Origin: an uncultured Candidatus Saccharibacteria bacterium
GTDB lineage: Bacteria; Patescibacteriota; JACPGU01
DNA length: 64,000 nt
Assembly: GCA_964355795.1 (NCBI GenBank)
Contig: CAYHEQ010000001.1
Span: 9,849 to 73,848 of the forward strand
Direction: 5' to 3'
Part shown: positions 14,381 through 34,730 of the stretch, piece by piece
Position numbering within the stretch: the first letter of the stretch is position 1
How the letters are laid out: each line of letters starts with the position of its first letter
Position numbers and translations under genes: made by a program
The notes under the pieces: model-generated
The model's input: only the letters and a program-made list of their open reading frames with translations
Databases searched by the model: none
Told to the model about the DNA's origin: nothing

Positions 14381-14389
14381 AATATGTAA

Positions 14390-15053: not shown

Positions 15054-15055
15054 TT

Positions 15056-15667: not shown

Positions 15668-15675
15668 ACTTTTGC

Positions 15676-15800: not shown

Positions 15801-16632
15801 ATACACCCAAATACCATTGAATAATATATTTTCCGAAGAACAAAGCGACGAGAAATCCACAGACCAGAAAAGGCGCAAAAGGGATGATGTCTTGACGCGT
15901 TTTTTTCTTCAGCGCTATCAGAACGAGGCTAAAGACCGAGCCCAAAATAAAGGCCGAAAAAAGCGCGACTAAAATAAGCGGCCATCCTAACAGCAAACCA
16001 ATGAATGTCCCCAATTTCACATCACCCCAACCCATCCATTTTTCTTTTGAAATCAAAACGAGAAGCAGAAAAAATCCCCCGCCAATGATCGGTCCCAAAA
16101 TGAATTGCCCAATATCTGGACTATAGATGAAGAAATTGGCGCCAAAGTCATTATGCAAAACTAGATTTAATAGCCCCAGCAAAAGCAAAAGTAAAATCCC
16201 GGGCAAAACTATTTTGTCCGGGACTAAATAAGTCCTCGCGTCAATGAAAAATATCGCTACCAGCGCCGCCAATCCTAAACCGTAAATGAGAAGAAATATC
16301 GTTAAATTATAGCCGAGGAAAGCTCCGGCGAAACGAAAATAAAGTCCAGCGAAAAGAAGTCCCATGAGCAATTCTAGCGCCGGATAAAGTAGCCCAATTT
16401 TGTTTCGGCAGTGGCGACAACGACCACGAAACGCCAAAAACGCCAAAATCGGCACTAATTCCAGCGCCGTGAGAGTTTGCTTGCATTGGGGACAACGACT
16501 GCGACCGAAAATAATCCCCTCGTCGGTATTAAATCTGGTGATAACCACCGAAAGGAAACTACCGATGATCGTGCCCACCACAAAGTATAAAGCTAGATTG
16601 AAATAGAAGCTGGTCATAAGATTATTATACAA
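15799..16632 (-). CDS. pilD: Prepilin peptidase (A24 family)
   Basis: CPQCKQ..CRHCRNKI zinc-binding tetracysteine. Multi-TM protein with a conserved GWGDVKLG Asp motif. Confidence 0.85.
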   Translation of the reverse strand: MYNNLMTSFYFNLALYFVVGTIIGSFLSVVITRFNTDEGIIFGRSRCPQCKQTLTALELVPILAFLAFRGRCRHCRNKIGLLYPALELLMGLLFAGLYFRFAGAFLGYNLTIFLLIYGLGLAALVAIFFIDARTYLVPDKIVLPGILLLLLLGLLNLVLHNDFGANFFIYSPDIGQFILGPIIGGGFFLLLVLISKEKWMGWGDVKLGTFIGLLLGWPLILVALFSAFILGSVFSLVLIALKKKTRQDIIPFAPFLVCGFLVALFFGKYIIQWYLGV

Positions 16633-16737
16633 CCAAAAACGTTAGATGTTAATCTTTTATTATTAGGGCTTACGCGTTTGATCTTATCTTTTTTTACCGT
16701 TCAATGTCAGGCGTTCTCTATTGGTTGCTGCGTCTTT

Positions 16738-16776
16738 TGAGGTTCGACCTCTGGGCATCCTTTGAGGTCGAACCTC
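16738..16776. repeat. Hairpin repeat family copy (loop variant B) located immediately downstream of the major pilin gene
   Basis: gaggttcgacctctgggcatcctttgaggtcgaacctc. The loop is the reverse complement of the loop in the copy at 29004..29043. Confidence 0.8.
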
Positions 16777-16881
16777 TTGGCGGGGAAGGTTAGGCGCGTA
16801 AGTCCTAATTATGCCATAATTTTCAACCGAATACGGCATCCAGAAGGATGCCGTATTCGTTGCGCGCTTTTGAATTTCCTA

Positions 16882-17325
16882 TCAACTGCTGGTGCAAGCG
16901 GCCGCAATAGCAACGTCTTTCCCCCCGCTACCGACAGAATAAGTGGCCGTACCCCCTGTCGGGATATTCTCAAGTGTGGCTACTAAAGCAAAATCTGTGG
17001 CGTTAGCGCAATATTTATAAAACTCTGTGGCGTTTGGCGCTACAATATCTTTCTCCACATATCCAAGCTTTCTTAGAGAAGTCGCTACAGCTGGATCCCA
17101 AATAATAGCCTTGAAAGAACCCGATGCCGCTGGATAAGTCCCCATATCCAAAGAATACTGCAATACTGCCTTAGAAACATAATCCAAATCCGCCTTTCTC
17201 TTCCCGTCTCTGGCCCTAGACCGAGCCGACGAGAAAGAAGCCAAACCAATAGTCGCCAAGATAGCGATAATGGCAATAACTATCAAAAGTTCAATTAAGG
17301 TAAAACCCTTTTCTTTTTTTTGCAT
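16882..17325 (-). CDS. pilA: Major type IV pilin (PilA-like)
   Basis: KGFTLIELLIVIAIIAILATIGL class III signal, small 147-aa protein, C-terminal Cys pair (YCANATDF...AAACTSS). Strong RBS AAGGAG 5 nt before the ATG. Confidence 0.8.
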   Translation of the reverse strand: MQKKEKGFTLIELLIVIAIIAILATIGLASFSSARSRARDGKRKADLDYVSKAVLQYSLDMGTYPAASGSFKAIIWDPAVATSLRKLGYVEKDIVAPNATEFYKYCANATDFALVATLENIPTGGTATYSVGSGGKDVAIAAACTSS

Positions 17326-17341
17326 AATTTCTCCTTTACTA

Positions 17342-17393
17342 TTAATTTCTTAATTTCTTAATTTCTTAATTTCTTAATTTCTTAATTTCTTAA
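17342..17393. repeat. (TTAATTTC)x6.5 octanucleotide tandem repeat in the 5' leader/promoter of the major pilin gene
   Basis: Six perfect 8-bp units plus a partial unit. They end 16 bp upstream of the pilin start codon, just upstream of the RBS. Confidence 0.9.
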
Positions 17394-17446
17394 CCCTATC
17401 GTAATACAATAACCTCTCTATGTTAAGGGCCACTTTTCAACAGGCT

Positions 17447-18664
17447 CTAAGTAATAACATTGGAAAGCTGGAATATCGGCATCAATATCGCCAAGACCAA
17501 AAACATTACTCCTAGACCAATAATCAACATAATCATTGGCTCAAGCAATGCCGTTAATCCTTTGATGGCCGTATTCGTTTCATCTTCATAAATGCTAGCT
17601 AATTTCAGCAAAATCTTGTCTAGTTGCCCGGTTTGTTCGCCAACAGCAATCATGGAAGCGACCAGTGGCGGGAAATAATGACTACGAGAGATAGGGACAG
17701 ATAAAGGAACTCCTCTCTCTACCTCGGCGATAGAACCCTTGATCTCTTGCTCTATCAAGATATTGCCAACGGATTCCGAGATCATGCTCAAAGATTTGAT
17801 GATAGGCACCCCGCCCCCCATCAAAAGACCGAGATTTTTGGCGAAGTGAGCCGTATAAATACCGAGATTGATCTTGCCAAAAACAGGAAATTTCAGCGCT
17901 ATCCACCCTATGGTATGTTTGCCCGTGGTAGTCAACATGAAATATCTAATCAACAAAACTGTAACAATGATAATGACAATAGTCAAATACCAATAGCTAA
18001 CGAGGAAGTGGCTCAAAGCGACCATCAGTCGCGTCAATACTGGCAGTTGCGCTCCAGAAGATTTGAAAACATCTTCTAGTTGAGGAATAACATAAACGAT
18101 AGCCACCAGGCCCACAGCGCCGATGGCGCCAATGATGAAGATTGGGTAAATCATCGCCGCCTTGATCTTGGACCGCATCGCGTAATCACCCTCCATCTGG
18201 TCGGCGACATCATTCAACGCTCCGTCCAGCTTGCCAGAGGCCTCTCCGCTCCTAATCATACTAATGAAAACTGGGGAAAAAACATAGGGGAACTGGCCAA
18301 TGGCAAAAGAAAAACTTTTGCCTTGTTCTATCAAAGATATTATTTTGATAATAACCTTAACCAAATTTTTATTAGTTGTTTGCCGAACCAGAGATCTCAA
18401 AGCCTCCATCAGGGGCAGACCAGCGTTAATCATCGTGGCTAACTGTCTGGAGAAAATAGCCTTATCTTTGGCTCTGATACCCGCAAAAATGCTACTAAAA
18501 AAATTGCGCACTCGGTCTTCCGTGGCCAAAAATGGTTTAACGGCCAGCACCGTCAGCTTGTTATAACGCAAAATATCATCCACCGCGTCAATGCTGTCGG
18601 CTTCTACCAAACCTTTGATGACCCTCCCCGATTTGTCTTGCGCTTCGTATTGATATTGATCCAT
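17447..18664 (-). CDS. pilC: Type IV pilus assembly platform protein PilC (GspF family)
   Basis: 405 aa with two GspF-like repeats and three TM segments, conserved across its length. Confidence 0.9.
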   Translation of the reverse strand: MDQYQYEAQDKSGRVIKGLVEADSIDAVDDILRYNKLTVLAVKPFLATEDRVRNFFSSIFAGIRAKDKAIFSRQLATMINAGLPLMEALRSLVRQTTNKNLVKVIIKIISLIEQGKSFSFAIGQFPYVFSPVFISMIRSGEASGKLDGALNDVADQMEGDYAMRSKIKAAMIYPIFIIGAIGAVGLVAIVYVIPQLEDVFKSSGAQLPVLTRLMVALSHFLVSYWYLTIVIIIVTVLLIRYFMLTTTGKHTIGWIALKFPVFGKINLGIYTAHFAKNLGLLMGGGVPIIKSLSMISESVGNILIEQEIKGSIAEVERGVPLSVPISRSHYFPPLVASMIAVGEQTGQLDKILLKLASIYEDETNTAIKGLTALLEPMIMLIIGLGVMFLVLAILMPIFQLSNVIT

Positions 18665-18791
18665 ATATTAGGTAAATCACAAACTACAAACTCCAAATCA
18701 CAAACCAATAATTAACGGCCTAGATTTTTGTTGTTTGAGATTTTTAACTTGAGATTTGTTTGCAATTTGTTATTTGTAATTTGTTATTTTA

Positions 18792-19871
18792 TCAAAGTAA
18801 TGCCTTAATCGTCTCCTTCGTCACCTTGCCTTGAGCCAGTAGTTCCGTCAGCGATTGCTCAAAGGTAGTCATCCCCTCGCTCTTCCCTGTTTCTATAATT
18901 GACTTCAACTGATTAGTTTTGCCTTCTTTAATGGAGCTGATGATCGCTGTATTCGCCACCATCACTTCCGTGGCCGGAATCCGTCCACCATGCACTTTTG
19001 GCAATAATCTTTGAGCGATCACCCCCAGTAAGACATTGGCCAGCTGGGTTCTCACTTGATTTTGGTAATGTGGCGGGAAAGCGTCAATAATCCTATCGGC
19101 TGTGGTCGCCGCTGAACCAGCGTGGACGGAAGCGAAAACCAGATGACCAGTTTCCGCGATAGTGAGAGCCGCCTCCATTGATTCGCTGTCTCGCAACTCC
19201 CCTATGAGAATAACATCAAAATCTTCTCGCAAAGCCGACCGTAGGGCTTCCTTGAAGCTTTTGGTGTCTCGCCCCACCTCTCTTTGATTTATAATACACT
19301 GTCGGGGACGAAAAACATACTCTATTGGATCTTCAATGGTCAAAATATGCGCCGCTCTGGTTCTATTAATTTCTTCCAAGATAGCCGCGATAGTCGTTGA
19401 TTTGCCCGAACCGGTAGGCCCTGTGACTAGAACCAATCCCTGATGACGGTGAGCAAAACTCTGCACAGAATCTGGCAAACCCAATTCATTAAAACTACGA
19501 ATCTCACTGGGGATCAAACGAATGGCGCAAGCCACGCTCCCTTTTTGTAAAAATATATTGGCGCGAATGAAAGCGCGATCTTTGAAGATATAGGAAAAAT
19601 CCAATTCTTTTTGTTCTCGGAAAGTCTCCTTCTGCTCGGGAGTCAAAAGCAAGTGCACCAATTTCTCTATGTATCCCGGTGTTAATCTAGGCCTATCAAC
19701 CAAAGGCAACAATTTGTTATCCACCCGCAGGACAGGGTAATAGCCGGCCGAAAGATGAATATCGGAAGCCCCTTTCTCCAATCCCTCATTGAGCAAAGAA
19801 AATATCTCTGATTTATTATCAGCCAGCGCTGGAATGTCTAAGAAATCATTGTATTCATTTTTCTGTACCAC
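18792..19871 (-). CDS. pilT: Twitching motility/retraction ATPase PilT
   Basis: 359 aa with Walker A GPTGSGKSTT, Asp box, Walker B and His box. Confidence 0.85.
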   Translation of the reverse strand: MVQKNEYNDFLDIPALADNKSEIFSLLNEGLEKGASDIHLSAGYYPVLRVDNKLLPLVDRPRLTPGYIEKLVHLLLTPEQKETFREQKELDFSYIFKDRAFIRANIFLQKGSVACAIRLIPSEIRSFNELGLPDSVQSFAHRHQGLVLVTGPTGSGKSTTIAAILEEINRTRAAHILTIEDPIEYVFRPRQCIINQREVGRDTKSFKEALRSALREDFDVILIGELRDSESMEAALTIAETGHLVFASVHAGSAATTADRIIDAFPPHYQNQVRTQLANVLLGVIAQRLLPKVHGGRIPATEVMVANTAIISSIKEGKTNQLKSIIETGKSEGMTTFEQSLTELLAQGKVTKETIKALL

Positions 19872-19970
19872 GGTAATAGTTTATAGGTTTTAGTTTGTAG
19901 TGATTAGTGGAATAAAATTACTTAATTTAACCTAAAAACTATAAACTAAAAACTGATATTTTTATTTTTT

Positions 19971-21815
19971 CTACAAGCTCGTTACTCTATACACTTCTTC
20001 CATCGTCGTAATCCCTTGCAATACTTTCAAAACCCCGTCTTGCTTCATAGTAATCATCCCCTCTTTCAAGGCTTGATTTAAGATGTCGGTGGAAGACGAC
20101 CTCTGGATAGTCAATTTCTGCACTTCTTCGGAGATAGGGAGTAATTCATACACGCCCAATCGCCCCTTGTAACCAGAGTTATTGCATTTCTTGCAACCCT
20201 TGCCTTGCAAAATATTTTTCTTTTCAAAAGGGATTTCTTTCTTGTATTCTTCGGGGATAGCTTCATACTCTTTTTTCATATCAGCGATGATGGCTTCGGA
20301 AACTTCCGCTTTTTCCTTACATTCATCACAAACTTTCCTCACCAATCTTTGCGCGATAATAGTATGCAGGGAGGAAGCGATGAGAAATGGTTCCACGCCC
20401 ATATCCACCAAGCGCGGGATAGCGCCGGCAGCGTCATTGGTGTGCAGGGTGGACAAGACTAGATGCCCCGTCAGAGCCGACTGCACCGCCATTTCGGCTG
20501 TTTCTTTGTCGCGAATCTCCCCCACCATAATGATATTGGGGTCTTGGCGCAAAATAGAACGGAGTCCTTGGGCGAAAGAATAACCGATATAGGGTTTCAC
20601 CTGCGATTGGCTAACGCCATTCATCTGGTATTCCACGGGATCTTCTAGAGTGACGATATTAACTCCTTCGGTATTGAGCCGAGCGATGGCCGCGTAAAGA
20701 GTGGTTGATTTACCAGAACCAGTAGGCCCCGTCACGAGCAAGATGCCGTGCGGGATTTGGATAGCTTTGAGCAGGTAATCAAAAGATTTGCCTTGCACGC
20801 CCAGTTGCTCCAATTGAATCACTCCCCCACCTTTGTCCAAGATTCTCATCACCACTTTCTCGCCGTTAGTGGTGGGAAAAGTGGAGATACGCAGGTCAAT
20901 CTCGCGATCAGCGAAGACCACATCAATTCTGCCGTCTTGTGGCACTCTTTGTTCATCAATTTTCAATTTTGCCAAGATTTTGATGCGAGAAACAAAAGCC
21001 GGATGGTCCTTGAGGGGGATACTGGCCACTTGATGCAAGACACCATCAATACGACAACGGATTCTAGTGTCCGCTTTGTCGTTGGGCTCCACGTGAATAT
21101 CGGAAGCGCGAGAAAAAACGGCAAATTTGATAATCGCCGCCACAATTCTTGGGATAGCGGAATTTTTGATTAATTCTTGGAGCTGTTCTGCGGTTTCTAC
21201 CTCTTCCTGCACCAAAGTCGCCAGCGCTGTGTCCGATCGGGGCGCTTCTTCCTTTTTTTCTTCCTGACGAGAGGTCTCTTTTTTTTCTCCAACAGGAGGC
21301 ACTGTCTGCTGGACGATTGGTTGCGCTTCTTCCGTAGCGCCAGTGTCTTTTTCCATTAAGACTGGGTTTTTGTACTGCTCTAAAACTTTTTCTAGTCCCG
21401 CTTGGCTAGCCACATAAGGATCAACGTTGATATTGTTTTTACTCTTAATGAAATCAAAAGCTTTGCGCGTGACAGGATCCCATGGCTTGGAAACAGCTAC
21501 CTTGATCATTTGATCGGAAATTGTCTCAAAAACCACCATATTGTATTTGCGTGCTATCTCTTCCGGAAATTTGGACAAAACAACGAAAGGGATCTTGACC
21601 GCGGAAAGATCAATATAGGGCATCCCATAAATCTCTCCGGCAAATCTGGCGATATCTTCCACATTAACCTTTTCTGACCCAATTAAAGCATCTTCTAAAA
21701 AGGCCCCAGATTGCGCGGCCGTTTCCTTAATCTTTTTGGCGCTTTCTTCATCTAGGAGCTTTTTTCCCAGCGCCAATTCTAAAATGTTTTTTGCATTAAC
21801 TGTCATTGAATGCAT
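19971..21815 (-). CDS. pilB: Type IV pilus assembly ATPase PilB (GspE family)
   Basis: N-terminal T2SSE_N domain, Walker A GPTGSGKSTT, C-terminal tetracysteine CDECK...CKKC. A low-complexity insert makes it 614 aa. Confidence 0.9.
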   Translation of the reverse strand: MHSMTVNAKNILELALGKKLLDEESAKKIKETAAQSGAFLEDALIGSEKVNVEDIARFAGEIYGMPYIDLSAVKIPFVVLSKFPEEIARKYNMVVFETISDQMIKVAVSKPWDPVTRKAFDFIKSKNNINVDPYVASQAGLEKVLEQYKNPVLMEKDTGATEEAQPIVQQTVPPVGEKKETSRQEEKKEEAPRSDTALATLVQEEVETAEQLQELIKNSAIPRIVAAIIKFAVFSRASDIHVEPNDKADTRIRCRIDGVLHQVASIPLKDHPAFVSRIKILAKLKIDEQRVPQDGRIDVVFADREIDLRISTFPTTNGEKVVMRILDKGGGVIQLEQLGVQGKSFDYLLKAIQIPHGILLVTGPTGSGKSTTLYAAIARLNTEGVNIVTLEDPVEYQMNGVSQSQVKPYIGYSFAQGLRSILRQDPNIIMVGEIRDKETAEMAVQSALTGHLVLSTLHTNDAAGAIPRLVDMGVEPFLIASSLHTIIAQRLVRKVCDECKEKAEVSEAIIADMKKEYEAIPEEYKKEIPFEKKNILQGKGCKKCNNSGYKGRLGVYELLPISEEVQKLTIQRSSSTDILNQALKEGMITMKQDGVLKVLQGITTMEEVYRVTSL

Positions 21816-21896
21816 ACTGAATTATGATTCAGGATTTAGGATTTAGGATTTAAAAGATTATTCATGAATCATAAATCATAAATCTTGAATCCCTTC

Positions 21897-22175
21897 CTAA
21901 AGATATGGATTCTCCTTCCCCACATCGGCTGGATCAACCACGACTGGCGTATCAGCAATCTTTTTCAGATCTTTCAGTTCGTTATCCAGAACTTCACTAT
22001 AAGCTTGAGGCACGACTACGGGAGGAAAACTGGTTAATTGTTCTGACTTTGGCGCTGTTTTGATGATAGCGATGACAACGAAAAGCACCATCAAAAAAGC
22101 GGCCACTATACCGATCGTATTGATAGCAGAAAATTCCCCTTTCATTTTTTTCAACCAAAAATTAATCTTTTTCAT
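21897..22175 (-). CDS. Small single-pass membrane protein (pilus-locus associated)
   Basis: 92 aa with one TM segment, located between pilB and pilO-like genes. Confidence 0.4.
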   Translation of the reverse strand: MKKINFWLKKMKGEFSAINTIGIVAAFLMVLFVVIAIIKTAPKSEQLTSFPPVVVPQAYSEVLDNELKDLKKIADTPVVVDPADVGKENPYL

Positions 22176-22195
22176 AAAGCCCCCTCACCTTGACG

Positions 22196-22885
22196 TTACT
22201 TCTCCATTTCAAACGTAGAAATAATAGTTTTCATCAATACATCAGCGCCAGTGTTTCCAGAACTTATATTAAAAATGTAAGAAGCGCCGGCTTTATCCAT
22301 TCTGTAATATACGAAGCCCCCATCGGTGCCGTAACGAGGTATTGTATATTTTTCCCATTGCTGATTGCCTGATTTAATGATTTTTTTATCTATTTTTAGT
22401 GAACTGCCCCCATCAGAAAAGAGTTTTTCTTGTTTTTTTATTATATCGTCGTAATCTGACGGTTTCCCACTTTCAAAATAGAAATTATCAGGGCTAAATG
22501 CCCATCCATAGACGAAAGAGGACCTGTACATAGATGTAAACCCTATCACACTGGAAGGAGCATCTGGATTTTTGGGCTTCTCCCAAACAAAATCAGCAGG
22601 ATACCTAAATCTAACGCCAAGATCTTCGTCTTGATATTTTTTCCATGCATATTTCTCGCCATCACGATACATTTCCTCGGTAGGCCTCGTAAGCTCCTCT
22701 GCGATATTGGACTGCGCATCATTGGATATCGCTTTGTTTGTATCTTTTTTATTTAAAAAATCATTTTGCCATAAATAAACCCCTCCACCAGAAACTATGG
22801 CAACCATTACTAAGATAAAAATGCTTGATATTGCTTTCATACCCCTACTCCCTTCTTTTTGTTCTATTTGTATTGCTCCCCTCAT
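22196..22885 (-). CDS. Hypothetical membrane-anchored protein (pilus locus)
   Basis: Probable start at MKAISSIFILVMVAIV (signal anchor). No known domain. Confidence 0.45.
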   Translation of the reverse strand: MRGAIQIEQKEGSRGMKAISSIFILVMVAIVSGGGVYLWQNDFLNKKDTNKAISNDAQSNIAEELTRPTEEMYRDGEKYAWKKYQDEDLGVRFRYPADFVWEKPKNPDAPSSVIGFTSMYRSSFVYGWAFSPDNFYFESGKPSDYDDIIKKQEKLFSDGGSSLKIDKKIIKSGNQQWEKYTIPRYGTDGGFVYYRMDKAGASYIFNISSGNTGADVLMKTIISTFEMEK

Positions 22886-22930
22886 TATTAAATTTAAATT
22901 AGCCTACTATTACCTGTTTGCTTTGCTATT

Positions 22931-23626
22931 TTATTCTTTACTTCCTCCCACTCCTTCTTGATAAAAAATATTCGCCGTTACAGAGAATCGCAACAAAGGC
23001 TGTCCAATACGGACATCGCCGGAGCCATTAACGCTAATGACTTTGATGTGAAATGGCCTGATATTATCTTCCAGCTCTTTGACGAAATTATAAACGGCAG
23101 AATAATTGCCCGTGATATCAAAGACGATTTCTTGCGTTTTCCAAGTATTGGGAGCCGAAGGCTTGACGCCAACAGCGCCAGCGTTAACCCCCGCTTCTCC
23201 ACTGACAACCGTCCTGTCCGCGCTACTGGCTTCCTTGGGAGTAAAATTGGTGATGAAAAGCGAATTGTCCGAAGCGGCTTTTTCCAGAGTGACCAAAATT
23301 TCAGGAATTTCAATACCTTTCGGCAAAGACTGCTCCACCTCTTCAATGAAATCTTTTTGCTCATCAATACTTTTGGCGAGATTTTCTAATTTAGTTTTCT
23401 TTTCCTCAAGCTTGGCTTTCTCATTAGTATTATTGACAATATTCACCCTGTTTTGCTTGTAGGCGCTGTACAAAGGACCAAAAACTAGATAGCCAAAAAT
23501 ACCCACGATGAGGATGACTAAGAAAATGATCGTGCCGGTTTGATTTTCCCCCGTCCTGAAAAATTCCTCCACTTTTTTGGTGTTGAGAATTTTCTTTTTG
23601 GGCTTTGGTGGTAAAAGATTGTCCAT
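22931..23626 (-). CDS. PilO-like pilus assembly protein
   Basis: Short cytoplasmic N-terminus, one TM segment, a coiled-coil (EKAKLEEKKTKLENLAKSIDEQKDFIEEVEQ), then a C-terminal beta domain. This matches PilO architecture. Confidence 0.55.
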   Translation of the reverse strand: MDNLLPPKPKKKILNTKKVEEFFRTGENQTGTIIFLVILIVGIFGYLVFGPLYSAYKQNRVNIVNNTNEKAKLEEKKTKLENLAKSIDEQKDFIEEVEQSLPKGIEIPEILVTLEKAASDNSLFITNFTPKEASSADRTVVSGEAGVNAGAVGVKPSAPNTWKTQEIVFDITGNYSAVYNFVKELEDNIRPFHIKVISVNGSGDVRIGQPLLRFSVTANIFYQEGVGGSKE

Positions 23627-23711
23627 AAAATTCTGTAATTCGTAGTAACTTATTGTAATTTATCGTAATTAATTGCAACCAGACAACCAATTACCACGAG
23701 TTGCCTAATTA

Positions 23712-24359
23712 CTATAAATTACTGTCATCCAATATCCCCTGCTCCTGCGCTTTTTTGGCTTCCTCCTCTTTAATAACTGTTCTAGTAATATCCTTCTTTA
23801 AGCGCAAAGAAATGGAAAATTCTACCTTTGATTTACCGATGTCATTGACCGTTAATGAGGAGCTGATCAAGGAAGCCCCTTCAAAGAAAGAGGAATTATT
23901 GAAAGACACCAGCAGCTTGGCCACGCCCTGATAAGTTTCGGCCGAACCATTGATTCTGACAATCCCCGCCTTGTCTATCTCAAATCGAGAAAAAGACACT
24001 GTTTTCGGTTCAACGCTCTCCACTTCTTTGAAAACAACTGACCAGAAAGGCGTTTGTTGCAGAAGAGTCAGAGCGTTCCGATTTCTTTGCGCGATAGACA
24101 GCCCTTGTTGCTCTACGCTCAAAAGGGCGGCGTTGGCCGTCTTCAGCCCAGTAATAGCGTCTTTCAACACTTCATTTTTGTTCTTGGCGGAAACTTCTAG
24201 TCCCGCGAAAAGTAGCGTCCCCAAAACGAAAATACCCACAAAAATAGCGGAAAAGACCAGCGCCATCTTGCGATTTTGCTTATCTTTTTCGCTCTCCACG
24301 AAACGAGCCGTCGGCTCTCCTACTTCATTGGTGATTTTGGAAATATCAATATCTAACAT
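23712..24359 (-). CDS. PilN-like pilus assembly protein
   Basis: Cytoplasmic N-terminal segment, one TM segment, coiled-coil, and a periplasmic domain, as in PilN. It lies adjacent to the PilO-like gene. Confidence 0.55.
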   Translation of the reverse strand: MLDIDISKITNEVGEPTARFVESEKDKQNRKMALVFSAIFVGIFVLGTLLFAGLEVSAKNKNEVLKDAITGLKTANAALLSVEQQGLSIAQRNRNALTLLQQTPFWSVVFKEVESVEPKTVSFSRFEIDKAGIVRINGSAETYQGVAKLLVSFNNSSFFEGASLISSSLTVNDIGKSKVEFSISLRLKKDITRTVIKEEEAKKAQEQGILDDSNL

Positions 24360-24910: not shown

Positions 24911-27076
24911 TTACTGCCTGGCTTTGAATACTTCTTTGGCAAATCCCGGTGGCGGGGACAAGACTACTCGCGGATCGTATTGGAAATCTTCGGCTGGTTG
25001 CCAATCCAGATATTTAGGATCGTTAGGCTTTATTGAACCCTTGCAAATTGGTGGCAAGGCGTTATCGCAAGACCAGAGTAGCTCTTTCGGACCAATGTAA
25101 TTGCGATAAAGTTGGAAAGCTTCTGATCGCGAAGAAACATTCCACCACCCGCTAGCGATGACCACTCCATGAATGACTAATTGTTTGTCATAAGTCTCTC
25201 CGCCACAAGCAGCGGGGGTAATAGCGCAAGAACCGCTAATAAAGCTCCCCTTTTGACCGGTATTGGCTTTGTCAGAATAGATGAAGAATACGCCCTCCAG
25301 CCTTCCTACCCTCGGACTGACATTGACATTGCCATTTTTGACAATGAAGCCCACCATATCTTTGTTTTTGTTCTCGTATTGCAGACTGTCGTTAATAGAA
25401 AGATCGCCATCAACAACAACCGTTCCTCTGCCACGCAGGGTCATCGGCGAACCGCTATTGTTACCTATCGTCAAACCGTCACTATAATAAAGAGCGCCTC
25501 CTTCAGGGATATTGGTGGGATTGAGGTCTATTGTCGCGCTAGTGAGACTACCTTTGCCATAACTAGTTTTGGCTATTTTGGCGCCATTAATTAGTTTCGT
25601 CCGACTTTTTTCTATAATTCCGCAAGCCGAATTTTCTTGACAGACTTTGTCTTCATCTAGACCAAAACTGGAAGGACTATTAGAGCTGATGCCGTATGCG
25701 CCCACCGTCCAATCGCTCGCTGATTTTGATTGAGACGCTATATTGCCACCAGAACCGATGATGTAGAGAACGCTAGAAGGATTTCTCAAGTTCACTCCCT
25801 TGCGACCAAAAACGCTACCCCCGGTGGATTCTTTGAGGAAAGAATAAGTAACGATGTCTATGTCTGTTTTGGTAGTTTGCTCTGTCCCCGTCGTAAAGGT
25901 CGCGGTATTGGTAATTACTGAATTGGCTGTCACCTCTTTGGCAATAGTTACTTCTACTTCAAAATGATAATTGGTGGCGTGGACCAAAGAATTGATCGTT
26001 ATGGACAAAGAATTAGTCCCCGCAGTAGCGACGCTATAACTAGCGGAAATGATGTTAGCGCTTTTTACCCTGATACCCTTGATGGCAGACGCTGGCGTAA
26101 CCGTATCGTTGATGGTCAAAGTTCCTCCATCGGTAATATTATCCACCGCTACATCAAGATCGTAAGTGGTGGTGAAATCAATGCCCGGATTAATGAGGAG
26201 AGAAGTATCGTCGCTTTTACTCGCTGTTATCAGAGCCGACATCGGACTGATGAGCAAGACTTCCGCCGCCGAGTATTGCCAATGAATCTTGTCTTCAGAA
26301 ATAGCGGCTACTCCTTTGACTAAATACATGGCGGGATCAACCAAGGAGTTGCCCTTGTTGTCAAAAACTAGCGCTTCCGCCGTAGAACGATCAATATTTT
26401 TGAGATCGGACATTTTGTAAAAAGTGAGCGCGAGATTAGTCGTAGAATTGGCAAAAACAGTAAATCTCCTTCCCTCTTTCGGTTGCGGAACATAATATTG
26501 AACGCCTCCGATGGTTATCGTATCAGATCCGCCACTATCCACGGAGATGAAGTGTGTGCCGACTTTCAGATTAGAAATATTAAAATTCCCACTAGTAGGC
26601 GTGGCCGTTACCCCATCTATCAAAAGAGGGGCGATGATCGGACCGCTGTCGCTATTTTTCATCTCAATGCTGGCCGATCCCAAACCGATTGCTTCCGTAG
26701 CTGTCAACATTACTGTCTTGGAAATTTCCGCGCTAGCACCATTGATGCAAAGTAATTTGTAGATGGCCGAACCTTGCGGAACAAAAGTTTTCACTACTCC
26801 AAGAGGAGCGCCCCAACTACTGACGATAGTGGCGCCTAAGTCATCTATAATCCTGCATGAAGTAGCGCTGGAAACAGTGTAATAGAGAGTTATTGGGTCC
26901 ATCGGGTTTTTGATAGTGACATTTTTGAATGGCAGACCGCTAATACCATCAAAAACAAATTTCGTGATCGTCGGCTCGCCGACCGCCCGCGCGGAAGTGG
27001 CGCCAAAAATAATCCCCGCTACCAACGCTGGGAGAAAAACTAGCCCGAAAATAATGGATGAATATCTTTTGTTCAT
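24911..27076 (-). CDS. Large secreted protein (721 aa), possible adhesin
   Basis: N-terminal signal peptide (IIFGLVFLPALVAGIIFGATSARA). Ser/Thr/Gly/Asn-rich beta-type composition. No catalytic motifs. Confidence 0.65.
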   Translation of the reverse strand: MNKRYSSIIFGLVFLPALVAGIIFGATSARAVGEPTITKFVFDGISGLPFKNVTIKNPMDPITLYYTVSSATSCRIIDDLGATIVSSWGAPLGVVKTFVPQGSAIYKLLCINGASAEISKTVMLTATEAIGLGSASIEMKNSDSGPIIAPLLIDGVTATPTSGNFNISNLKVGTHFISVDSGGSDTITIGGVQYYVPQPKEGRRFTVFANSTTNLALTFYKMSDLKNIDRSTAEALVFDNKGNSLVDPAMYLVKGVAAISEDKIHWQYSAAEVLLISPMSALITASKSDDTSLLINPGIDFTTTYDLDVAVDNITDGGTLTINDTVTPASAIKGIRVKSANIISASYSVATAGTNSLSITINSLVHATNYHFEVEVTIAKEVTANSVITNTATFTTGTEQTTKTDIDIVTYSFLKESTGGSVFGRKGVNLRNPSSVLYIIGSGGNIASQSKSASDWTVGAYGISSNSPSSFGLDEDKVCQENSACGIIEKSRTKLINGAKIAKTSYGKGSLTSATIDLNPTNIPEGGALYYSDGLTIGNNSGSPMTLRGRGTVVVDGDLSINDSLQYENKNKDMVGFIVKNGNVNVSPRVGRLEGVFFIYSDKANTGQKGSFISGSCAITPAACGGETYDKQLVIHGVVIASGWWNVSSRSEAFQLYRNYIGPKELLWSCDNALPPICKGSIKPNDPKYLDWQPAEDFQYDPRVVLSPPPGFAKEVFKARQ

Positions 27077-27140: not shown

Positions 27141-27146
27141 CTCCGT

Positions 27147-27261: not shown

Positions 27262-28017
27262 CTATGGCGCCTTTACCTTGAATTTAACCGAACTCTCCCC
27301 CGGTGTGGCGGTATATGAATTCCAAAGCAATTCGTTGCTGGTAGACGAAAGGGTAAAACCTGTTCCATCGACTATCGTAGCCTTAGTTTTATCAAACATG
27401 CTTGGCAGGACGTATCTCAAATTAACAATCTTGTCCACCGACCCCTGATTGGTAACGCGCAAAGTATAGGTGATGAATCCACCCTTGAAAGATGTCGCAT
27501 TACCGCCTCCCGCGTCTCCCTCCGCTTCCACATAAACCAAGACGCCTTTGGGATAATTGTAAGAGTCGGTATAAGTATATTCTACAGGTTCAATGACGCC
27601 TCCTTGAGGGATAAGATTGACGCTAAAATTGGCCGTTAAAGTAGTACTGCCTTGACCAAAAGTGAAGGTCGCAGAACTAGCAAGGGTATTAGAGAGATTG
27701 CCATAAATAGGGCTAGAAGTAAAAGTCCAACCAGAAAAAACATAACCAGAATTAGCAGTAGCCTTAATTTCTTTGGTAGAACCACCCACTCCTGTTGTTG
27801 CTCCGCCAGTTATAGCTACCGTCCCGCCAGCCACTGGATTGACGACAAGAGTCAACGTGTAATTAGCCACACAAAGATTGGGCATTATGGCGCAGAGACT
27901 CGTCGCCACTGGTGGCACCATGGCCGATACCCCACCGGTCAAAAGCAAAATCAACCCTGCCGCCATACCAGCAAAAATTGTCTTCCTCCGCAAATTATTT
28001 ATGCTCTTTTTAATCAT
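27262..28017 (-). CDS. Secreted protein with InlB B-repeat (Listeria-Bacteroides repeat) domain
   Basis: Signal peptide, then GYVFSGWTFTSSPIYGNLS ... ATFTFGQGSTTLTANF. The same module, with similar DNA, occurs in the 860-aa protein. Confidence 0.65.
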   Translation of the reverse strand: MIKKSINNLRRKTIFAGMAAGLILLLTGGVSAMVPPVATSLCAIMPNLCVANYTLTLVVNPVAGGTVAITGGATTGVGGSTKEIKATANSGYVFSGWTFTSSPIYGNLSNTLASSATFTFGQGSTTLTANFSVNLIPQGGVIEPVEYTYTDSYNYPKGVLVYVEAEGDAGGGNATSFKGGFITYTLRVTNQGSVDKIVNLRYVLPSMFDKTKATIVDGTGFTLSSTSNELLWNSYTATPGESSVKFKVKAP

Positions 28018-28123: not shown

Positions 28124-28654
28124 TTACGGCGCTATCGTCCCGGTAACTGTCCATTGATTTGGTATTTGAACATAAGCAGTTGCGTTTGCCTTCTCATTAC
28201 ATCCCGAACCTGATACTATTTGGCCACCAACTGCTGAATATAGCCCCTGAACAGCTGCGCAATTTTGACCAGCAGCGACAAAAGTGGCAGGAGTATTAAA
28301 GCTAGTAAATGCGCCATTTGTTGCCCCGGCAATAACATTGCCACTCCAACTCCCACTAGGCACTGTCCATGTTTCAGTTATGGTAGTTGTCGAGCCAGTA
28401 ACTCCCCCTGTAACTGTCCATTCGGCTGGCCCTAACGATATCGTCGCCGCTGTATTACCTGGGCCCGAATTGGGTATAGGAATATTCCTCCACGTCTTCA
28501 CAATCCAAGTGAAAGAATACCCCGTTGCCGCTTGGGCTCTCTGATTTTGTGTTCCCCAAGCCACTACCGCGACGACGATAAGAACGATGCCAATGATAAA
28601 AAGCGCTAGGCTTTTTTTGTCCAAAGTTTTTGTCATATTTTCCTCCTCGCACAC
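28124..28654 (-). CDS. Secreted protein sharing a conserved N-terminal leader with the 860-aa protein
   Basis: MTKTLDKKSLALFIIGIVLIVVAVVAWGTQNQRAQAA against MIKTLDKKKLAIFVIGIALIIAAVMAWGTQNQKAQAA. The leader is about 80% identical and is also conserved at the DNA level. Confidence 0.6.
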   Translation of the reverse strand: MCEEENMTKTLDKKSLALFIIGIVLIVVAVVAWGTQNQRAQAATGYSFTWIVKTWRNIPIPNSGPGNTAATISLGPAEWTVTGGVTGSTTTITETWTVPSGSWSGNVIAGATNGAFTSFNTPATFVAAGQNCAAVQGLYSAVGGQIVSGSGCNEKANATAYVQIPNQWTVTGTIAP

Positions 28655-28741: not shown

Positions 28742-29020
28742 TTACTTTTTTAGCCCTTCCCCCGCTATAGGTCCCGGCATTTGACTCGTTTCAAAGCCAT
28801 AAGTCGTTTCCCCCTTCTTCTTCGCCTCCTCTATCGCCAGATTTCTTTTAATCATATCCGGCGTGCCGGCTATCGGTGACTTACTTCGTAACCGTATCTC
28901 GTTATACGCCACCACTCCCAGCAAAACGACTCCGACCGCAAGAGTGATGATAGCAATATGGCGAAAAGTTATTTCTTTCATACTAAATTTTAATTTCTCC
29001 AATCCGAGGCTCAACCTCAA
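28742..29020 (-). CDS. Small membrane protein
   Basis: The N-terminal 13 codons lie inside a hairpin repeat. The likely real start is MKEITFRHIAIITLAVGVVLLGVVA at about 28981. Confidence 0.4.
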   Translation of the reverse strand: MRLSLGLEKLKFSMKEITFRHIAIITLAVGVVLLGVVAYNEIRLRSKSPIAGTPDMIKRNLAIEEAKKKGETTYGFETSQMPGPIAGEGLKK

Positions 29021-29043: not shown

Positions 29044-29065
29044 TTTACCCTAGATGGTTTCCTGT

Positions 29066-29868: not shown

Positions 29869-30768
29869 TTATTTTACTGGCACCAATTTTATCGGATTAT
29901 TATACTGATCCAACAAACTTTGCAAAAATGGATCTTGAGGATTTTGCGCCAAACCATCTTTTAAGACCAGCTTCGCTCCCGCAATATCTTTCTGACTATG
30001 CAACATAGTGGCCAAACCATAATAAGCGGCCACTAATTTCGCGTCCAGCCTGATAGCTTCTCGATATTGTTTCTCGGCCGCCTCGTATTTTTCCTGACTA
30101 CTCAAGACATTAGCAAAATTGTTGTGGTAAATAGCGACAGAAGGCTCTTTGGCCACTACTTGCCCCCAAGTTTCTACAGCCTTGGTGAGATTACCAACAT
30201 TTTGGTAAAGTGAAGCTAATGTCGCCAAATCCTCCGCGCTGACAGCTGATTTTTCCAAAATCGTCGTCGCCTCCACATACCTCTTCAGTCTTTCTTCTGG
30301 TGTCAGGGTTCGGCCACTATCTGCGTCCACACCCATCCCCGCTTCTTGGATAGTCTGTTGAAGAGTTTTTTGCGTATCAGAACCAATGATATTTTCCCTG
30401 ATAGTCGTGAGGTAGAAAGAGCCCGCAATGCCAGCTATGATGATAACCAGTAAAGTTGCCCCCAAGAAAATCCCTATTCTCCTGCGGTATCGCGGTATCT
30501 GCAAACGCGAGATATCCACCACCCGCACCGTCCCGGGCTCGGCAAAATTATGCACCAAAATCTCCCCTTGCCGAAGCTTACCAACAACCACTTTTTTGTT
30601 TTTTCGCGCACCTTGATTTTTTCTAATAATCTTGCGCGACCCTCCGAAACTTGCTACTCGCGAGACAGGAATAGTAGTTCCGTGAGCGAGTAAGCGTGAA
30701 GGACGGGTTGGTTTTACTACCTTTTTTGGCTTCAGTTTCTCTTTTTGTTTGCGTTTTTTGATTGACAT
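29869..30768 (-). CDS. TPR-repeat membrane protein
   Basis: Basic N-terminus, one TM segment (IGIFLGATLLVIIIAGIAGSF), then TPR-like repeats (AIYHNNFANVLSSQEKYEAAEKQYREAIRLD). It is paralogous to 34002..34730 and 38073..38759. Confidence 0.7.
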   Translation of the reverse strand: MSIKKRKQKEKLKPKKVVKPTRPSRLLAHGTTIPVSRVASFGGSRKIIRKNQGARKNKKVVVGKLRQGEILVHNFAEPGTVRVVDISRLQIPRYRRRIGIFLGATLLVIIIAGIAGSFYLTTIRENIIGSDTQKTLQQTIQEAGMGVDADSGRTLTPEERLKRYVEATTILEKSAVSAEDLATLASLYQNVGNLTKAVETWGQVVAKEPSVAIYHNNFANVLSSQEKYEAAEKQYREAIRLDAKLVAAYYGLATMLHSQKDIAGAKLVLKDGLAQNPQDPFLQSLLDQYNNPIKLVPVK

Positions 30769-31406: not shown

Positions 31407-33989
31407 CTATTTCACCGGATTCAATATGTGCTTCGGCACAGTGATTGTTACGGCCTTAGTGTTATCGGTAATAATGACTGCGGTAGCGCCACTAGTGGCC
31501 GTGGCCACCAGATTCACTGCGTAAGTGCTGTTGGATTTTAATATACTGAAACTGCAATTGGTCGTAACCGAAGAACAATTGGGAAGACTGGTTGGCAAAA
31601 TGACAGTCCCATTTTCTTTAACTTGCCAATTATAGCCAGAGGTCACCGTCCCTCCCACTGCTACCATCTCTGGCTTCACCGTTACCGTATCCCCTACTCG
31701 GAGAGAGCCGGAAATAGTCCAGTCGCCAGTAGTTTCTTGAGTGGGAGTCACCGAAGCGCCAGCGTTGACGATAGCGCCATCGGTAATGATGTTCGCTCCC
31801 GCTCTGCCCACATCCGGCTTGATGCTCAAAGAGGCCGAAGAGGGAGCGGGAGGATTAAGCCCTGCTGTTTTAGTCACTGTTCCCATCGCCCCGCGACTGT
31901 CTGTTACGGTCAAAGTAAAGGAATAAAGTCCTCCTCCATTAGTATACTCGGGATATGTATAAGCGAGGTCTTTTTTGGTAAAAAGAAGGAATGGAGAAGG
32001 ATCGTCAGAGATTTTTTGGGAATCAGAGGAAGTGTAAGTATAGATATAAGCGGGGTCCCAAGACTTTGTTACCTTCCATGCCCAACTCGTAATTGTATCC
32101 CCATCGGGATCGGTTGATTGATCGTAATATTTGAAATCCATCGTCGTCCCGAGCTGCGTGCCATCAAACTTCGCCACAGGAGGGCTATTCACAGATGTAT
32201 AACTACACACAAAACCAATTGTTCCGCCAGCAGTAAGTGTTCTTATTGATGGAGGAATAAATGTGTATCCCGTCTTAGCCGGACAGGTGGCGGTATAAGA
32301 GCCAATTGGAGCAGTTGTTGAAACAGCAACGGCTACATTCGGCGTAACCACCGTCCCCGTATAGGTTGTCGTAGCAGGACTGGGACCCTTAACTGTGATA
32401 GTTGTATCAGGAAGAGTGGAGTTGATGTTGATGGTGCCAGGTAATACTTTGTCCACCGTAATTGTTTTCGTCGCTGTGTCACTAAACGCCCCTCGACTAT
32501 CCTGAACCATAAGAGACGCTGTATATGTCCCTACGGACGAATACTTATGGAGAGGTTTTTTTTCAACACTATCAATTATCCCGTCATTATTAAAATCCCA
32601 AAACCAACCAGTAATACCGTCGCCATCAGGATCGGTGGAGGTATCTGTAAATTGCACTGAAAGTGGTACAGAGCCAGAAATGGGGCTGGCAACAAACCTG
32701 ACTAAAGGAGATTTATTGGGAAAGGACAATCCTCCGCAACCATCCGTTCTAGATATAACAACAGTACCGTCACCAGCGACTTCTCTAGCGCCTCCTGTGC
32801 CAATGCCACTTCCACCAATACCGCCGTTAGCAGTAACTGTCTTAAATCTCACATCTCTTCCGGCTTCAAAAACTTGCTCGCCACTCCATGTCCCGTCTTC
32901 TTTCTTCGATAATATCTTTATTCTCCCACCACCACCAGCATAAGGTGGAAAATAGCTACCAGCTACCCCGTCGCCACCATTAGCGCTAATCATACCTTCG
33001 TGATTGAAGCTATTTGTAACAATACAAATAGATCCACCAGAGCCACCACCGCCTATTCGTCCACCATTACCTATCTCACCTATCTTGCCATTAGCAGAGA
33101 TACTACCATCTTTATCTATGATGATTTTGTTAGCAGATATTACTATGAGACCACCACCGCTACCGCCAGTATAATCACCATTATAGCCATAAGATCCTAC
33201 TCCCATGCCACCTCCACCTCCACTGCCCCACTGGTCTGGATTATTCTTATCGCCATAAGTATATGACCCAACATCCGCTCCTAAACCTCCATAGCCTCCG
33301 CCCGAACCGGCATATACATAAATAGAGTTAGTAAATGACCAACCTCCACCTCCAGGACCATAGCCATACTGCTTACCAGTGCCACCACTATACCCAAATC
33401 CATCTGCGGTTATTTTACCGCCAGAGTTAATTATCAGTTCTTTATTGATGATGAGTTGCATACTACCAACATCGCCGGGAGATCTTGTCTTTTGGGTTAA
33501 AACACCGTCGTTTATTATAGTTAAGCTATTGAAATAATGCTCTCCATCAATTTGTACCGTTGAACCATTAATAACAACATCTTTCTTGTCGTACTGAACA
33601 TTAGTTGATGAGATAACTCCCGATGGAAATACGGCGCTAATAGGCACAAAATTAGCCATCAAAGCAGTGTTGCCTTGACCAAAAGTGAAGGTCGCAGTAC
33701 TAGTGACCTTGCTAGAAATATTGCCATAAATAGGGTTAGAAGTAAAAGTCCAACCATAAAATTTATATCCCAGATTCGCAGTGGCGGTAATGGTCCTGGT
33801 GGAATTTTCATTCGTCCCTCCGCCAATCACCACGCCATACTCGCTCGGACCAGCCGTCAATGTGAGAGTATAAGTCGTTGCGGCTTGGGCTTTTTGGTTT
33901 TGCGTACCCCAAGCCATTACTGCGGCAATAATTAGCGCAATTCCGATGACGAAAATAGCTAACTTCTTTTTGTCTAAAGTTTTTATCAT
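31407..33989 (-). CDS. Large secreted adhesin-like protein (860 aa) with InlB B-repeat, Gly-rich region and two PKD domains
   Basis: Conserved leader MIKTLDKKKLAIF...AQAA, B-repeat GYKFYGWTFTSNPIYG, and long GGSGGG tracts. PKD motifs WFWDFNNDG and STDPDGDTITSWAW are present. Confidence 0.75.
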   Translation of the reverse strand: MIKTLDKKKLAIFVIGIALIIAAVMAWGTQNQKAQAATTYTLTLTAGPSEYGVVIGGGTNENSTRTITATANLGYKFYGWTFTSNPIYGNISSKVTSTATFTFGQGNTALMANFVPISAVFPSGVISSTNVQYDKKDVVINGSTVQIDGEHYFNSLTIINDGVLTQKTRSPGDVGSMQLIINKELIINSGGKITADGFGYSGGTGKQYGYGPGGGGWSFTNSIYVYAGSGGGYGGLGADVGSYTYGDKNNPDQWGSGGGGGMGVGSYGYNGDYTGGSGGGLIVISANKIIIDKDGSISANGKIGEIGNGGRIGGGGSGGSICIVTNSFNHEGMISANGGDGVAGSYFPPYAGGGGRIKILSKKEDGTWSGEQVFEAGRDVRFKTVTANGGIGGSGIGTGGAREVAGDGTVVISRTDGCGGLSFPNKSPLVRFVASPISGSVPLSVQFTDTSTDPDGDGITGWFWDFNNDGIIDSVEKKPLHKYSSVGTYTASLMVQDSRGAFSDTATKTITVDKVLPGTININSTLPDTTITVKGPSPATTTYTGTVVTPNVAVAVSTTAPIGSYTATCPAKTGYTFIPPSIRTLTAGGTIGFVCSYTSVNSPPVAKFDGTQLGTTMDFKYYDQSTDPDGDTITSWAWKVTKSWDPAYIYTYTSSDSQKISDDPSPFLLFTKKDLAYTYPEYTNGGGLYSFTLTVTDSRGAMGTVTKTAGLNPPAPSSASLSIKPDVGRAGANIITDGAIVNAGASVTPTQETTGDWTISGSLRVGDTVTVKPEMVAVGGTVTSGYNWQVKENGTVILPTSLPNCSSVTTNCSFSILKSNSTYAVNLVATATSGATAVIITDNTKAVTITVPKHILNPVK

Positions 33990-34001: not shown

Positions 34002-34730
34002 TTATCCTCTTCTGTATGTCATCAATATCTGCTTCAACATCTCATCTTTTGGAATTTGAGCTGTTCCCTCTTCTAAAACTTTTATCGCTTCTGCTCTATT
34101 ATTTTCGAAATCTCTCAAAAGTACCGCTAGATTAACATAGGTGGCAGAAAAATGTGGGTCAATGGTGATGGCTTCGCGATAATGCTTTTTTGCTTCTTCG
34201 TATTTTTTTTCACTACGCAAAACATTGCCCAGATTATTATGCAAAATAGCGTCTTGAGGAGTTACTTTTACGGCTTGTGAGAAAAACTCCTCGGCTTTAC
34301 CCAAATCTCCAAGATTATAATAAGAAACGGCAAGTTTCTGTAAAACATCCTTGTTGTTAGGCTGTGTATTGATAACTTTTTCTAATTCTTCCACGGTTTC
34401 TTTGTATTTTTTTGTTTGCATTTCTGCGCTTATTGCCTGATCGCCACTTTTACCCATCGTTGCCTCCCTGTACGCATCCAGCCCATTCGCTAACCATTCC
34501 TGCGCTTTCACATCGCGCCAAATACGATATTTATTCAACAGAACATTCGCCAACAAAGATCCCCCATAAACCACAACTATAAGAATAATTATACTAATTA
34601 TAATTTTTGCTTTTTTATTAAAAATCTTCCTCTTTCTCTCCTCCCAATTTTTGTTTTTCTTTTTCATAAGTGAAATTTCTGTATCTGTAGTATATATTTC
34701 CTCATTTAGAGGTTCGACCTTAGTTTCCAA
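34002..34730 (-). CDS. TPR-repeat membrane protein (paralog)
   Basis: The first about 11 codons of the ORF are a hairpin repeat, so the start is likely MKKKNKNW at about 34667. One TM segment then TPR repeats (ILHNNLGNVLRSEKKYEEAKKHYREAITID). Confidence 0.65.
   Translation of the reverse strand: METKVEPLNEEIYTTDTEISLMKKKNKNWEERKRKIFNKKAKIIISIIILIVVVYGGSLLANVLLNKYRIWRDVKAQEWLANGLDAYREATMGKSGDQAISAEMQTKKYKETVEELEKVINTQPNNKDVLQKLAVSYYNLGDLGKAEEFFSQAVKVTPQDAILHNNLGNVLRSEKKYEEAKKHYREAITIDPHFSATYVNLAVLLRDFENNRAEAIKVLEEGTAQIPKDEMLKQILMTYRRG

Follow-up and report, generated by a model that had tools for sequence, protein, structure and literature searches.

The 64,000-nucleotide stretch analysed here (the window, part of contig CAYHEQ010000001.1 of an uncultured Candidatus Saccharibacteria bacterium) encodes two predicted secreted proteins, g170 and g860, which begin with a nearly identical leader of 37 residues. 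The genes and leaders are located as follows, with an arrow marking the putative cleavage site here and below:

28124..28636, minus strand: g170, predicted secreted protein of 170 amino acids, ATG at 28636
28526..28636, minus strand: g170 leader, residues 1-37, MTKTLDKKSLALFIIGIVLIVVAVVAWGTQNQRAQA↓A, recognised by translation, identity and n/h/c layout
31407..33989, minus strand: g860, predicted secreted multidomain protein of 860 amino acids, in the order leader, InlB-B-repeat (Flg_new_2), Gly-rich region, PKD domain and Ig-like region
33879..33989, minus strand: g860 leader, residues 1-37, MIKTLDKKKLAIFVIGIALIIAAVMAWGTQNQKAQA↓A, recognised by translation, BLASTP and a hidden Markov model (HMM) of the leader

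Both peptides described in the original prediction exist, but its coordinates read on the plus strand yield only stops, and both genes are on the minus strand. The end given for the first leader, 28654, is an in-frame GTG six codons above the ATG at 28636; the orthologues begin at this ATG, and AGGAGG is found 7-12 nt upstream of it. The near-identity of the leaders is real, although the figure is 28 of 37 residues (76%) and not about 80%; at the DNA level 83 of 111 nucleotides (75%) are identical. BLASTP aligns g170 with g860 at E 2e-15 over residues 1-35 and gives no significant match past the leader. The leader HMM, built from g170 and its homologues with g860 left out and used to search 10,618 open reading frame (ORF) segments from the window and 90 other loci, recovers g860 at E 6e-11, and the next match outside the family has E 0.35. 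The resemblance is thus far above what chance would give for two hydrophobic signal peptides. No third copy of the leader was found in the 64-kb window by a six-frame motif search or by the leader HMM. The DNA similarity sets in at the ATG and ends near codon 43, with none upstream of the ATG. An assembly artefact behind the shared leader is ruled out by the 28 differences in 111 nt between the copies and by the recurrence of the g170 locus in four independent assemblies, identical copies being present in three ENA assemblies and one Logan assembly from the 0.1 um fraction of Hainich groundwater.

The leader belongs to the g170 family, an uncharacterised family of secreted proteins of about 165 amino acids in Patescibacteria (the candidate phyla radiation, CPR). 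When 1.84 billion representatives were searched exhaustively with g170 by phmmer, 26 homologues were obtained (E 2e-17 to 9e-4), nearly all 157-190 amino acids long and aligned end to end with 30-44% identity; g860 is absent from the listing, so the search is blind to leader-only matches. W73, P159, W162 and G166 are invariant in the mature domain, which has the C-terminal motif P-x-K-W-T-V-T-G-T-I. By its mature domain g860 is not a member of the family, and the leader is the only common part. No Pfam or NCBIfam model matches g170, and its AlphaFold2 model (predicted local distance difference test, pLDDT, 81.5) has no fold match and is not a pilin fold; it consists of a helix at residues 7-33, a first strand at 40-54 and an all-beta domain from Y40. 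One protein of 391 amino acids in the representative library, P0025, has three tandem g170 mature domains behind a single leader, with no leader between the copies. Each copy begins at an x-Y-T-x-x-W strand, which puts the domain boundary of g170 at residue 39-40 or thereabouts and marks the mature domain as an autonomous, repeatable unit.

The n-region of the leader is Lys-rich with the pattern M-x-K-x-L-D-K-K (MTKTLDKKS in g170, MIKTLDKKK in g860), in which K3, K7 and K8 occur together with D6. This positively charged segment is followed by an unbroken hydrophobic h-region of 18-20 uncharged residues (core 9-29) with a mean Kyte-Doolittle hydropathy of 3.2-3.5, and then by a c-region of 9-10 residues in which a polar Q/N-rich stretch, G-T-Q-N-Q-K/R, precedes A-Q-A↓A. 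Both copies have A34-x-A36↓A37, with Ala at positions -3 and -1 and no Pro close to the site. In the family alignment Ala occupies -1 in 24 of the 24 members having the N-terminus and -3 is A, T, S, V or I in all 24, including distant members that have no further leader motif in common; the leaders are 27-41 residues long. In the mature domain the first beta strand (T-x-Y-x-x-W) begins 1-3 residues after the putative cleavage site, and a conserved -3/-1 pattern at a domain boundary is characteristic of signal peptidase I cleavage sites. The n/h/c architecture with a signal-peptidase-type site, as first proposed, is therefore borne out, and the leader is likely a Sec-type signal peptide, probably cut by signal peptidase I at A36↓A37. 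Outside -3/-1, positions K7, L10, G16, L19, V24, Q30 and N31 do not vary within the subfamily. Sec type I signal peptides have the same charged n-region, h-region, polar c-region, small residues at -3/-1 and site before the first structured element, but the g170 leader differs from them in being far more conserved and in having a long h-region (18-20 residues) and a long c-region (9-10 residues).

Other classes of export signal were considered and rejected. Neither the first 60 residues of g170 nor the first 130 of g860 contain a Cys, and there is no lipobox L-[AS]-[GA]-C, which speaks against a lipoprotein signal, and the n-regions are without Arg and hence without the twin-arginine motif of a Tat signal. 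A class III prepilin signal would have Gly at -1 followed by F/M-T-L-I-E with Glu at +5, and this is missing from both leaders. NCBIfam carries models for the YSIRK/GXXS, KxYKxGKxW and SipW-cognate signal peptides; the motifs of these classes are not visible, and an NCBIfam scan (E<=1) gave no family for g170 or g860.

Comparisons of the two leaders show that 18 of the 28 nucleotide differences are synonymous, with a proportion of changed synonymous sites (pS) of 0.71, which is saturated, and of nonsynonymous sites (pN) of 0.12 (binomial p 3.6e-6 against neutrality). In the c-region pN is only 0.04. Because the synonymous sites are saturated, the copy is not recent and the likeness of the encoding DNA, which the original prediction had pointed out, is only what the peptide imposes. 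A nucleic-acid element as the cause of the similarity is ruled out by the same saturation and by the lack of similarity above the ATG. It had also been argued that two carriers derived from one recent segmental duplication would imply no special role; just two carriers were found, but with pS at 0.71 the duplication is not recent.

The same constraint is seen between species. Among seven subfamily orthologues with recoverable DNA (21 pairs), mean pN is 0.25 in the leader and 0.52 in the mature domain, the leader having the lower value in 21 of 21 pairs, while pS is saturated in both parts. At the protein level the leaders are 57% identical and the mature parts 31%. The Ka/Ks (ratio of nonsynonymous to synonymous substitution rates) of signal peptides is normally 2-7 times that of the mature part (PMC3729583), so the trend in the g170 leader, which changes at half the rate of the mature domain, is the reverse of the published norm. 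The conservation above what generic Sec targeting needs, suggested in the original prediction, is thus supported. It is not merely an effect of fast bodies but a real sequence constraint, because the leaders of the window and of one relative (locus L088) are 56% identical when their PilN and PilO are 35-36% identical.

The mature parts of g170 and g860 are unrelated, as first described, but the divergence is not complete with respect to the locus, because residues 40-117 of g860 are homologous to a domain of g251, the gene next to g170:

27262..28017, minus strand: g251, adjoining g170 downstream, with a different leader (...GGVSA↓MVPPVATSLC...), Flg_new_2 and a DUF11-like C-terminus
27616..27861, minus strand: Flg_new_2 domain of g251, residues 53-134
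33639..33872, minus strand: residues 40-117 of g860, Flg_new_2 domain homologous to that of g251

Pfam assigns residues 43-117 of g860 to Flg_new_2, 425-512 to PKD_4 and 601-706 to Big_9, and residues 56-134 of g251 to Flg_new_2, and the Flg_new_2 (PF18998) scores are 33.8 bits in g860 and 43.4 bits in g251, with a gathering cut-off of 23.6. The protein g860 therefore appears as a chimera in which g170 is the match of residues 1-38 and g251 that of residues 40-117, the junction being T38-Y40, and Y-x-x-T is present at the junction in both source proteins. The two Flg_new_2 domains are 56% identical over 79 amino acids, which is the best match of the g860 domain among the ORFs of the window and the loci compared. 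In the closest relative the counterpart of this domain has 45% identity and a different leader (...GGTIKGFAQ↓TTYNLAL). In the pilus neighbourhoods of seven other genomes the g170 orthologue is the only carrier of the leader. Further along g860, residues from about 195 to 400 consist of Gly-rich repeats (GGGG, GSGGG, ANGG) without a Pfam match, maybe a beta-helix-like stalk, and this Gly-rich character is shared with a protein of 529 amino acids in the closest relative (locus L005, 4868-6457).

We favour, with a probability of roughly 0.6, the reading that the Sec-type signal peptide of the g170 family has been reused on g860 by an old gene fusion and is under purifying selection. The junction suggests that the two proteins share the leader because of this fusion, in which a g170-like gene would have contributed its 5' part, as far as about codon 38-40, and a g251-like gene its InlB-B-repeat domain. 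The presumed sources, g170 and g251, are neighbours in the same locus. The simplest route, as inferred from one short junction, would be a deletion in a duplicated g170-g251 pair that removed the roughly 720 nt separating the g170 leader from the g251 domain. The event is old, to judge by the saturated synonymous sites, and purifying selection has since held the leader peptide. A comparable pattern is known from the Vlp, Vsp and Vsa proteins of mycoplasmas, where paralogous surface genes of small genomes have a near-identical signal peptide on divergent mature regions. Those signals are lipoprotein signals with a Cys lipobox, and the genes have a conserved 5' untranslated region in common and have recombined recently, whereas g170 and g860 have no Cys, no upstream DNA similarity and saturated synonymous sites. 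The g170 leader evolves as slowly as the most conserved segments of the pilus proteins, from which it follows that it probably makes sequence-specific contacts in the membrane before cleavage; the partner might be the translocon, the peptidase, a small partner membrane protein or the pilus platform.

Several points weigh against this reading. The proposed fusion route depends on a single junction of about four residues, and an ancestral leader common to both lineages may be an alternative to fusion. The carrier count covers the 64-kb window, and there may be more than two carriers in the genome. A sequence-specific role is suggested by the evolutionary rates, but in the h-region the best angle for a helical face of conservation, 85 degrees, is not significant (permutation p 0.11). 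Finally, a long core of very high hydrophobicity (mean Kyte-Doolittle 3.5 over 15 residues), the distance of 9-10 residues from it to A-x-A and the modelled helix, which runs to residue 33, make an uncleaved membrane anchor possible.

All genes from 13.7 to 36.1 kb are on the minus strand, and the run consists of g183, a zinc-ribbon protein, two coiled-coil proteins, two tetratricopeptide repeat (TPR) paralogues, g860, g218, g79, g170, g251 and g721, followed by the pilus genes:

13745..24359, minus strand: type IV pilus operon, downstream of the secreted-protein genes, with PilN, PilO, PilB, PilT, PilC, major pilin, PilD and minor pilins
24911..27076, minus strand: g721, large secreted protein whose C-terminal 500 or so amino acids recur in large proteins downstream of g170 homologues
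28742..28981, minus strand: g79, small single-pass membrane protein preceding g170
29869..30768, minus strand: membrane-anchored TPR protein, paralogue 1, in a module also containing g218, g79, g170 and g251
34002..34667, minus strand: membrane-anchored TPR protein, paralogue 2, ending 12 nt before the g860 start codon

The pilus operon is recognised by the Pfam families PilN, PilO and Peptidase_A24 and by the PilB and PilT ORFs, and its pilins at 13745..17325 carry KGFTLIE. The genes g170 and g860 are 5.3 kb apart in an apparent tandemly duplicated module of coiled-coil, TPR and secreted proteins, and the locus, in its two halves, has the appearance of an old tandem duplication. The TPR paralogues are 33% identical and have TPR matches together with a sub-threshold PilW-like match.

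The gene order is kept in other genomes. In L088, L100 and L101 a small transmembrane protein is followed by the g170 homologue, a large secreted protein and PilN-PilO-PilB-PilT-PilC-pilin-PilD, and L085, L090 and L099 have partial versions of this order on short contigs that show only the parts reached. A g170 homologue lies upstream of pilN-pilO-pilB and after a small single-pass membrane protein in the window, L088, L090, L099, L100 and L101. Homologues of g79 are found directly upstream in L090, L099, L100 and L101, and in L088 an NYN gene lies between. The C-terminus of g721 is 32-33% identical over about 530 amino acids to two of the large proteins (L088_10579 and L085_5870). The closest genome at the species level is a Patescibacteria metagenome-assembled genome (MAG) with a PilB identity of 63%, and all other relatives are near 42%. 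The association with pili suggested in the original prediction is supported to the extent that g170 homologues neighbour type IV pilus genes in six other genomes; for a dedicated secretion or sorting route no evidence was found.

The secreted proteins of these neighbourhoods display an exchange of parts. A second leader, MIK[FL]xNKK[ST]KIILTA..LVVLVGLVSGVVWTKKSGTGE.AKAESG, is 84% identical between proteins of 1253 and 645 amino acids from two genomes with unrelated bodies, and it is also found on a protein of 305 amino acids (L085 4831-5748, L085 5861-9622 and L088 7044-8981). The gene after each g170 homologue keeps its N-terminus (a signal peptide ...A↓MVPPAGSIC...P.LC, with two Cys) in seven genomes while the body varies, being Flg_new_2, PKD, a g721-like C-terminus or none shared. 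A DUF11-like module of about 110 amino acids forms the C-terminus of secreted proteins that differ in their other parts, among them g251, g183 and several proteins of relatives, and the protein of 667 amino acids at 1976-3979 has a clear DUF11 domain.

A↓MVPPAGSIC-type genes: window 27262-28017 (g251); L085 1062-2846; L088 10579-12504; L090 4171-5262; L099 2888-4402; L100 10535-11818; L101 1268-3163
DUF11-like modules: window 27262-28017, 35544-36095 and 1976-3979; L085 4831-5748; L088 5482-6030 and 7044-8981; L090 474-1925

Because other leaders, the DUF11-like modules and the C-terminal modules of about 500 amino acids are also shuffled, the reuse of the g170 leader appears as one aspect of a general shuffling of modules. 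This pattern fits both plain recombination among rapidly diversifying surface proteins and N-terminal docking units.

The main rival to reuse of a cleaved signal peptide is that the leader is not cut but is a conserved anchor (N-in, C-out) that docks cargo to the pilus platform or to a small partner membrane protein, which we consider rather unlikely. The adhesin-like g860 and g170 would then be held at the same site, with the N-terminus as the functional part and a body that can be exchanged, as is the case in pilins and PilN. The long and very hydrophobic stretch of 20-21 residues, modelled as one helix from 7 to 33, agrees with an anchor, as do the lack of a C-terminal anchor or sorting motif in both proteins, the invariant positions K7, L10, G16, L19, V24, Q30 and N31 beyond -3/-1, the strict linkage to pilus genes, and the presence in relatives of other leader modules, up to 84% identical, on unrelated bodies. 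The leader is also more conserved than the body, as in the PilN proteins here, where the N-terminal 60 residues are 51-69% identical and the body 32-41%. PilN-type platform components resemble the leader proteins in that the N-terminus and membrane helix are more conserved than the extracytoplasmic body and in belonging to the same gene cluster, but they have no sequence relationship to the leader. The N-terminus of PilN binds a cytoplasmic partner, and PilN has no A-x-A at the end of its helix. An anchor needs neither the Ala at -1 nor the small or aliphatic residue at -3, yet these are kept in 24 of 24 members, even in those without other leader motifs, and the A-x-A site is exactly at the domain boundary. 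Moreover, no significant helical face of conservation and no partner was identified.

A broader proposal, unlikely in our view, is that the leader is one of several exchangeable N-terminal modules by which different surface proteins of Patescibacteria are tethered or handed to the type IV pilus apparatus. It would be a non-pilin counterpart of the conserved pilin N-terminus, and the platform or a small partner protein might, though this is doubtful, recognise the helix together with the Q/N-rich stretch. On the same proposal, and with as little confidence, recombination would exchange the adhesin-like bodies, which are made of Ig, PKD and B-repeat domains. Compatible with it are the leader conservation, equal to that of the best-kept parts of pilus proteins, the strict linkage of the genes to the pilus operon, the second leader type on unrelated bodies (84%) and the third N-terminal module with variable bodies in seven genomes. 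Type IV pilins likewise have a conserved hydrophobic N-terminal module and exchangeable bodies and are encoded beside the pilus machinery, and the pilins of this locus show N-terminal similarity without similarity of the bodies. The leader differs from them in having no G↓F-T-L-I-E site and in a putative cleavage after, and not before, the hydrophobic stretch, and g170 does not have a pilin fold.

The idea in the original prediction of a dedicated sorting signal, with a specialised peptidase or pathway and a set of substrates across the genome, is not supported and seems improbable. The c-region is unusually conserved (pN 0.04 between the copies) and Q30-N31 is invariant in the subfamily, and there is precedent in the YSIRK/GXXS signal peptides of Gram-positive bacteria, which direct secretion to a particular site (PMC5962339). 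Their conservation reflects a role beyond plain export (PMC5962339, PMC11370438), and as in g170 and g860 a conserved signal peptide occurs on different surface proteins of a single-membrane bacterium. However, YSIRK/GXXS peptides are found on many proteins per genome and in many genera, whereas the g170 leader is on one family and one chimera, and g170 and g860 have no YSIRK or GXXS motif, no LPXTG anchor and no NCBIfam match, which also applies to the KxYKxGKxW and SipW-cognate models. No third substrate was found in the window, with its two carriers in 64 kb, or in the seven pilus neighbourhoods of relatives, where only the g170 orthologue has the leader. A scan for processing enzymes of 30 window proteins, comprising every gene between 21.9 and 36.1 kb and most of the unannotated genes outside this interval, yielded no extra signal peptidase or sortase-like gene but only the prepilin peptidase and an M50 protease.

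Motif scans of metagenomes and genomes gave no further carriers either. In GTDB genomes the exact patterns M[TI]KTLDKK and V[VM]AWGTQN had 56 chance matches, none of which was confirmed. Exact W-G-T-Q-N-Q-x-A-Q-A had 0 matches in JGI metagenomes, and exact Q-N-Q-[KR]-A-[KQ]-A-A-T had 8, all out of context and hence attributed to chance. Word-indexed protein searches returned only g170 itself for g170 and nothing for the first 136 amino acids of g860 or for the leader alignment; they are uninformative, because g860 is in the collection and was still not returned for its own N-terminus.

That the shared leader is a functionless leftover of a recent segmental duplication or gene conversion is most improbable, since, for all that the genes are 5.3 kb apart in an apparent tandemly duplicated module, pS in the leader is 0.71 with pN at 0.12, 18 of 28 differences are synonymous (p 3.6e-6), DNA similarity is absent above the ATG and the TPR paralogues of the module are just 33% identical.

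Some other elements of the window were observed. Intergenic hairpins with a 13-nt arm, GAGGTTCGACCTY, and its complement have 25 matches (at most 1 mismatch) where 0.3 are expected. They have perfect stems of 13-15 bp and loops of 13-35 nt (often GGAGAAGTTTAGAAGCT) with no U-run after, and occupy intergenic gaps in both the pilus and the secreted-protein operons, such as the one separating the major pilin gene from PilD and the one separating g170 from g251. The family is organism-specific, being absent from all 99 loci of other organisms, and may be REP-like (repetitive extragenic palindromic), transcript-stabilising or processing elements. The octamer ATGCGAAT is clustered in intergenic regions and has 26 occurrences where 4.1 are expected.

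Hairpins: window 13179-13278, 16739-16776, 27106-27191, 28040-28101, 29006-29110 and 34709-34721
Octamer clusters: 24441-24488, 24857-24904, 36329-36402, 14393-14409, 15741-15777, 38779-38860 and 41252-41340

Octamer arrays in opposite orientations flank a small PD-(D/E)XK gene at 24488-24844; in relatives, the equivalent position is taken by small 23S-rRNA-IVP or PDDEXK_3 genes. The arrays at 36329-36402 abut without a gene between them and resemble an empty site. The octamer clusters could be an array of binding sites or the ends of a small mobile cassette. A 69-nt copy with 78% identity (36635-36703 compared with 36761-36829, minus strand) contains the 3' half of tRNA-Trp, with T-arm and acceptor end, and the downstream flank. 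It is located 126 nt downstream of the intact tRNA-Trp (36791-36863), is not called by ARAGORN or Rfam, and could be a decayed tRNA or what is left of a duplicated attachment site.

Patescibacteria lead a life attached to other microbes, with pili and surface proteins as the likely organs of contact. To our knowledge, almost none of the genes around the Patescibacteria pilus operon has a known role. The comparisons define an unannotated family of secreted proteins that travels with the pilus genes, show that the surface proteins of this neighbourhood are built by the shuffling of leaders, middle domains and C-terminal domains, and give an example of a signal peptide whose sequence is more strictly conserved than that of the exported protein. 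If no docking is involved, this is an ordinary case of signal-peptide reuse by gene fusion. If the constraint on the leader does reflect docking to the pilus machinery, it would represent a novel mode of cargo recruitment to a type IV pilus system.

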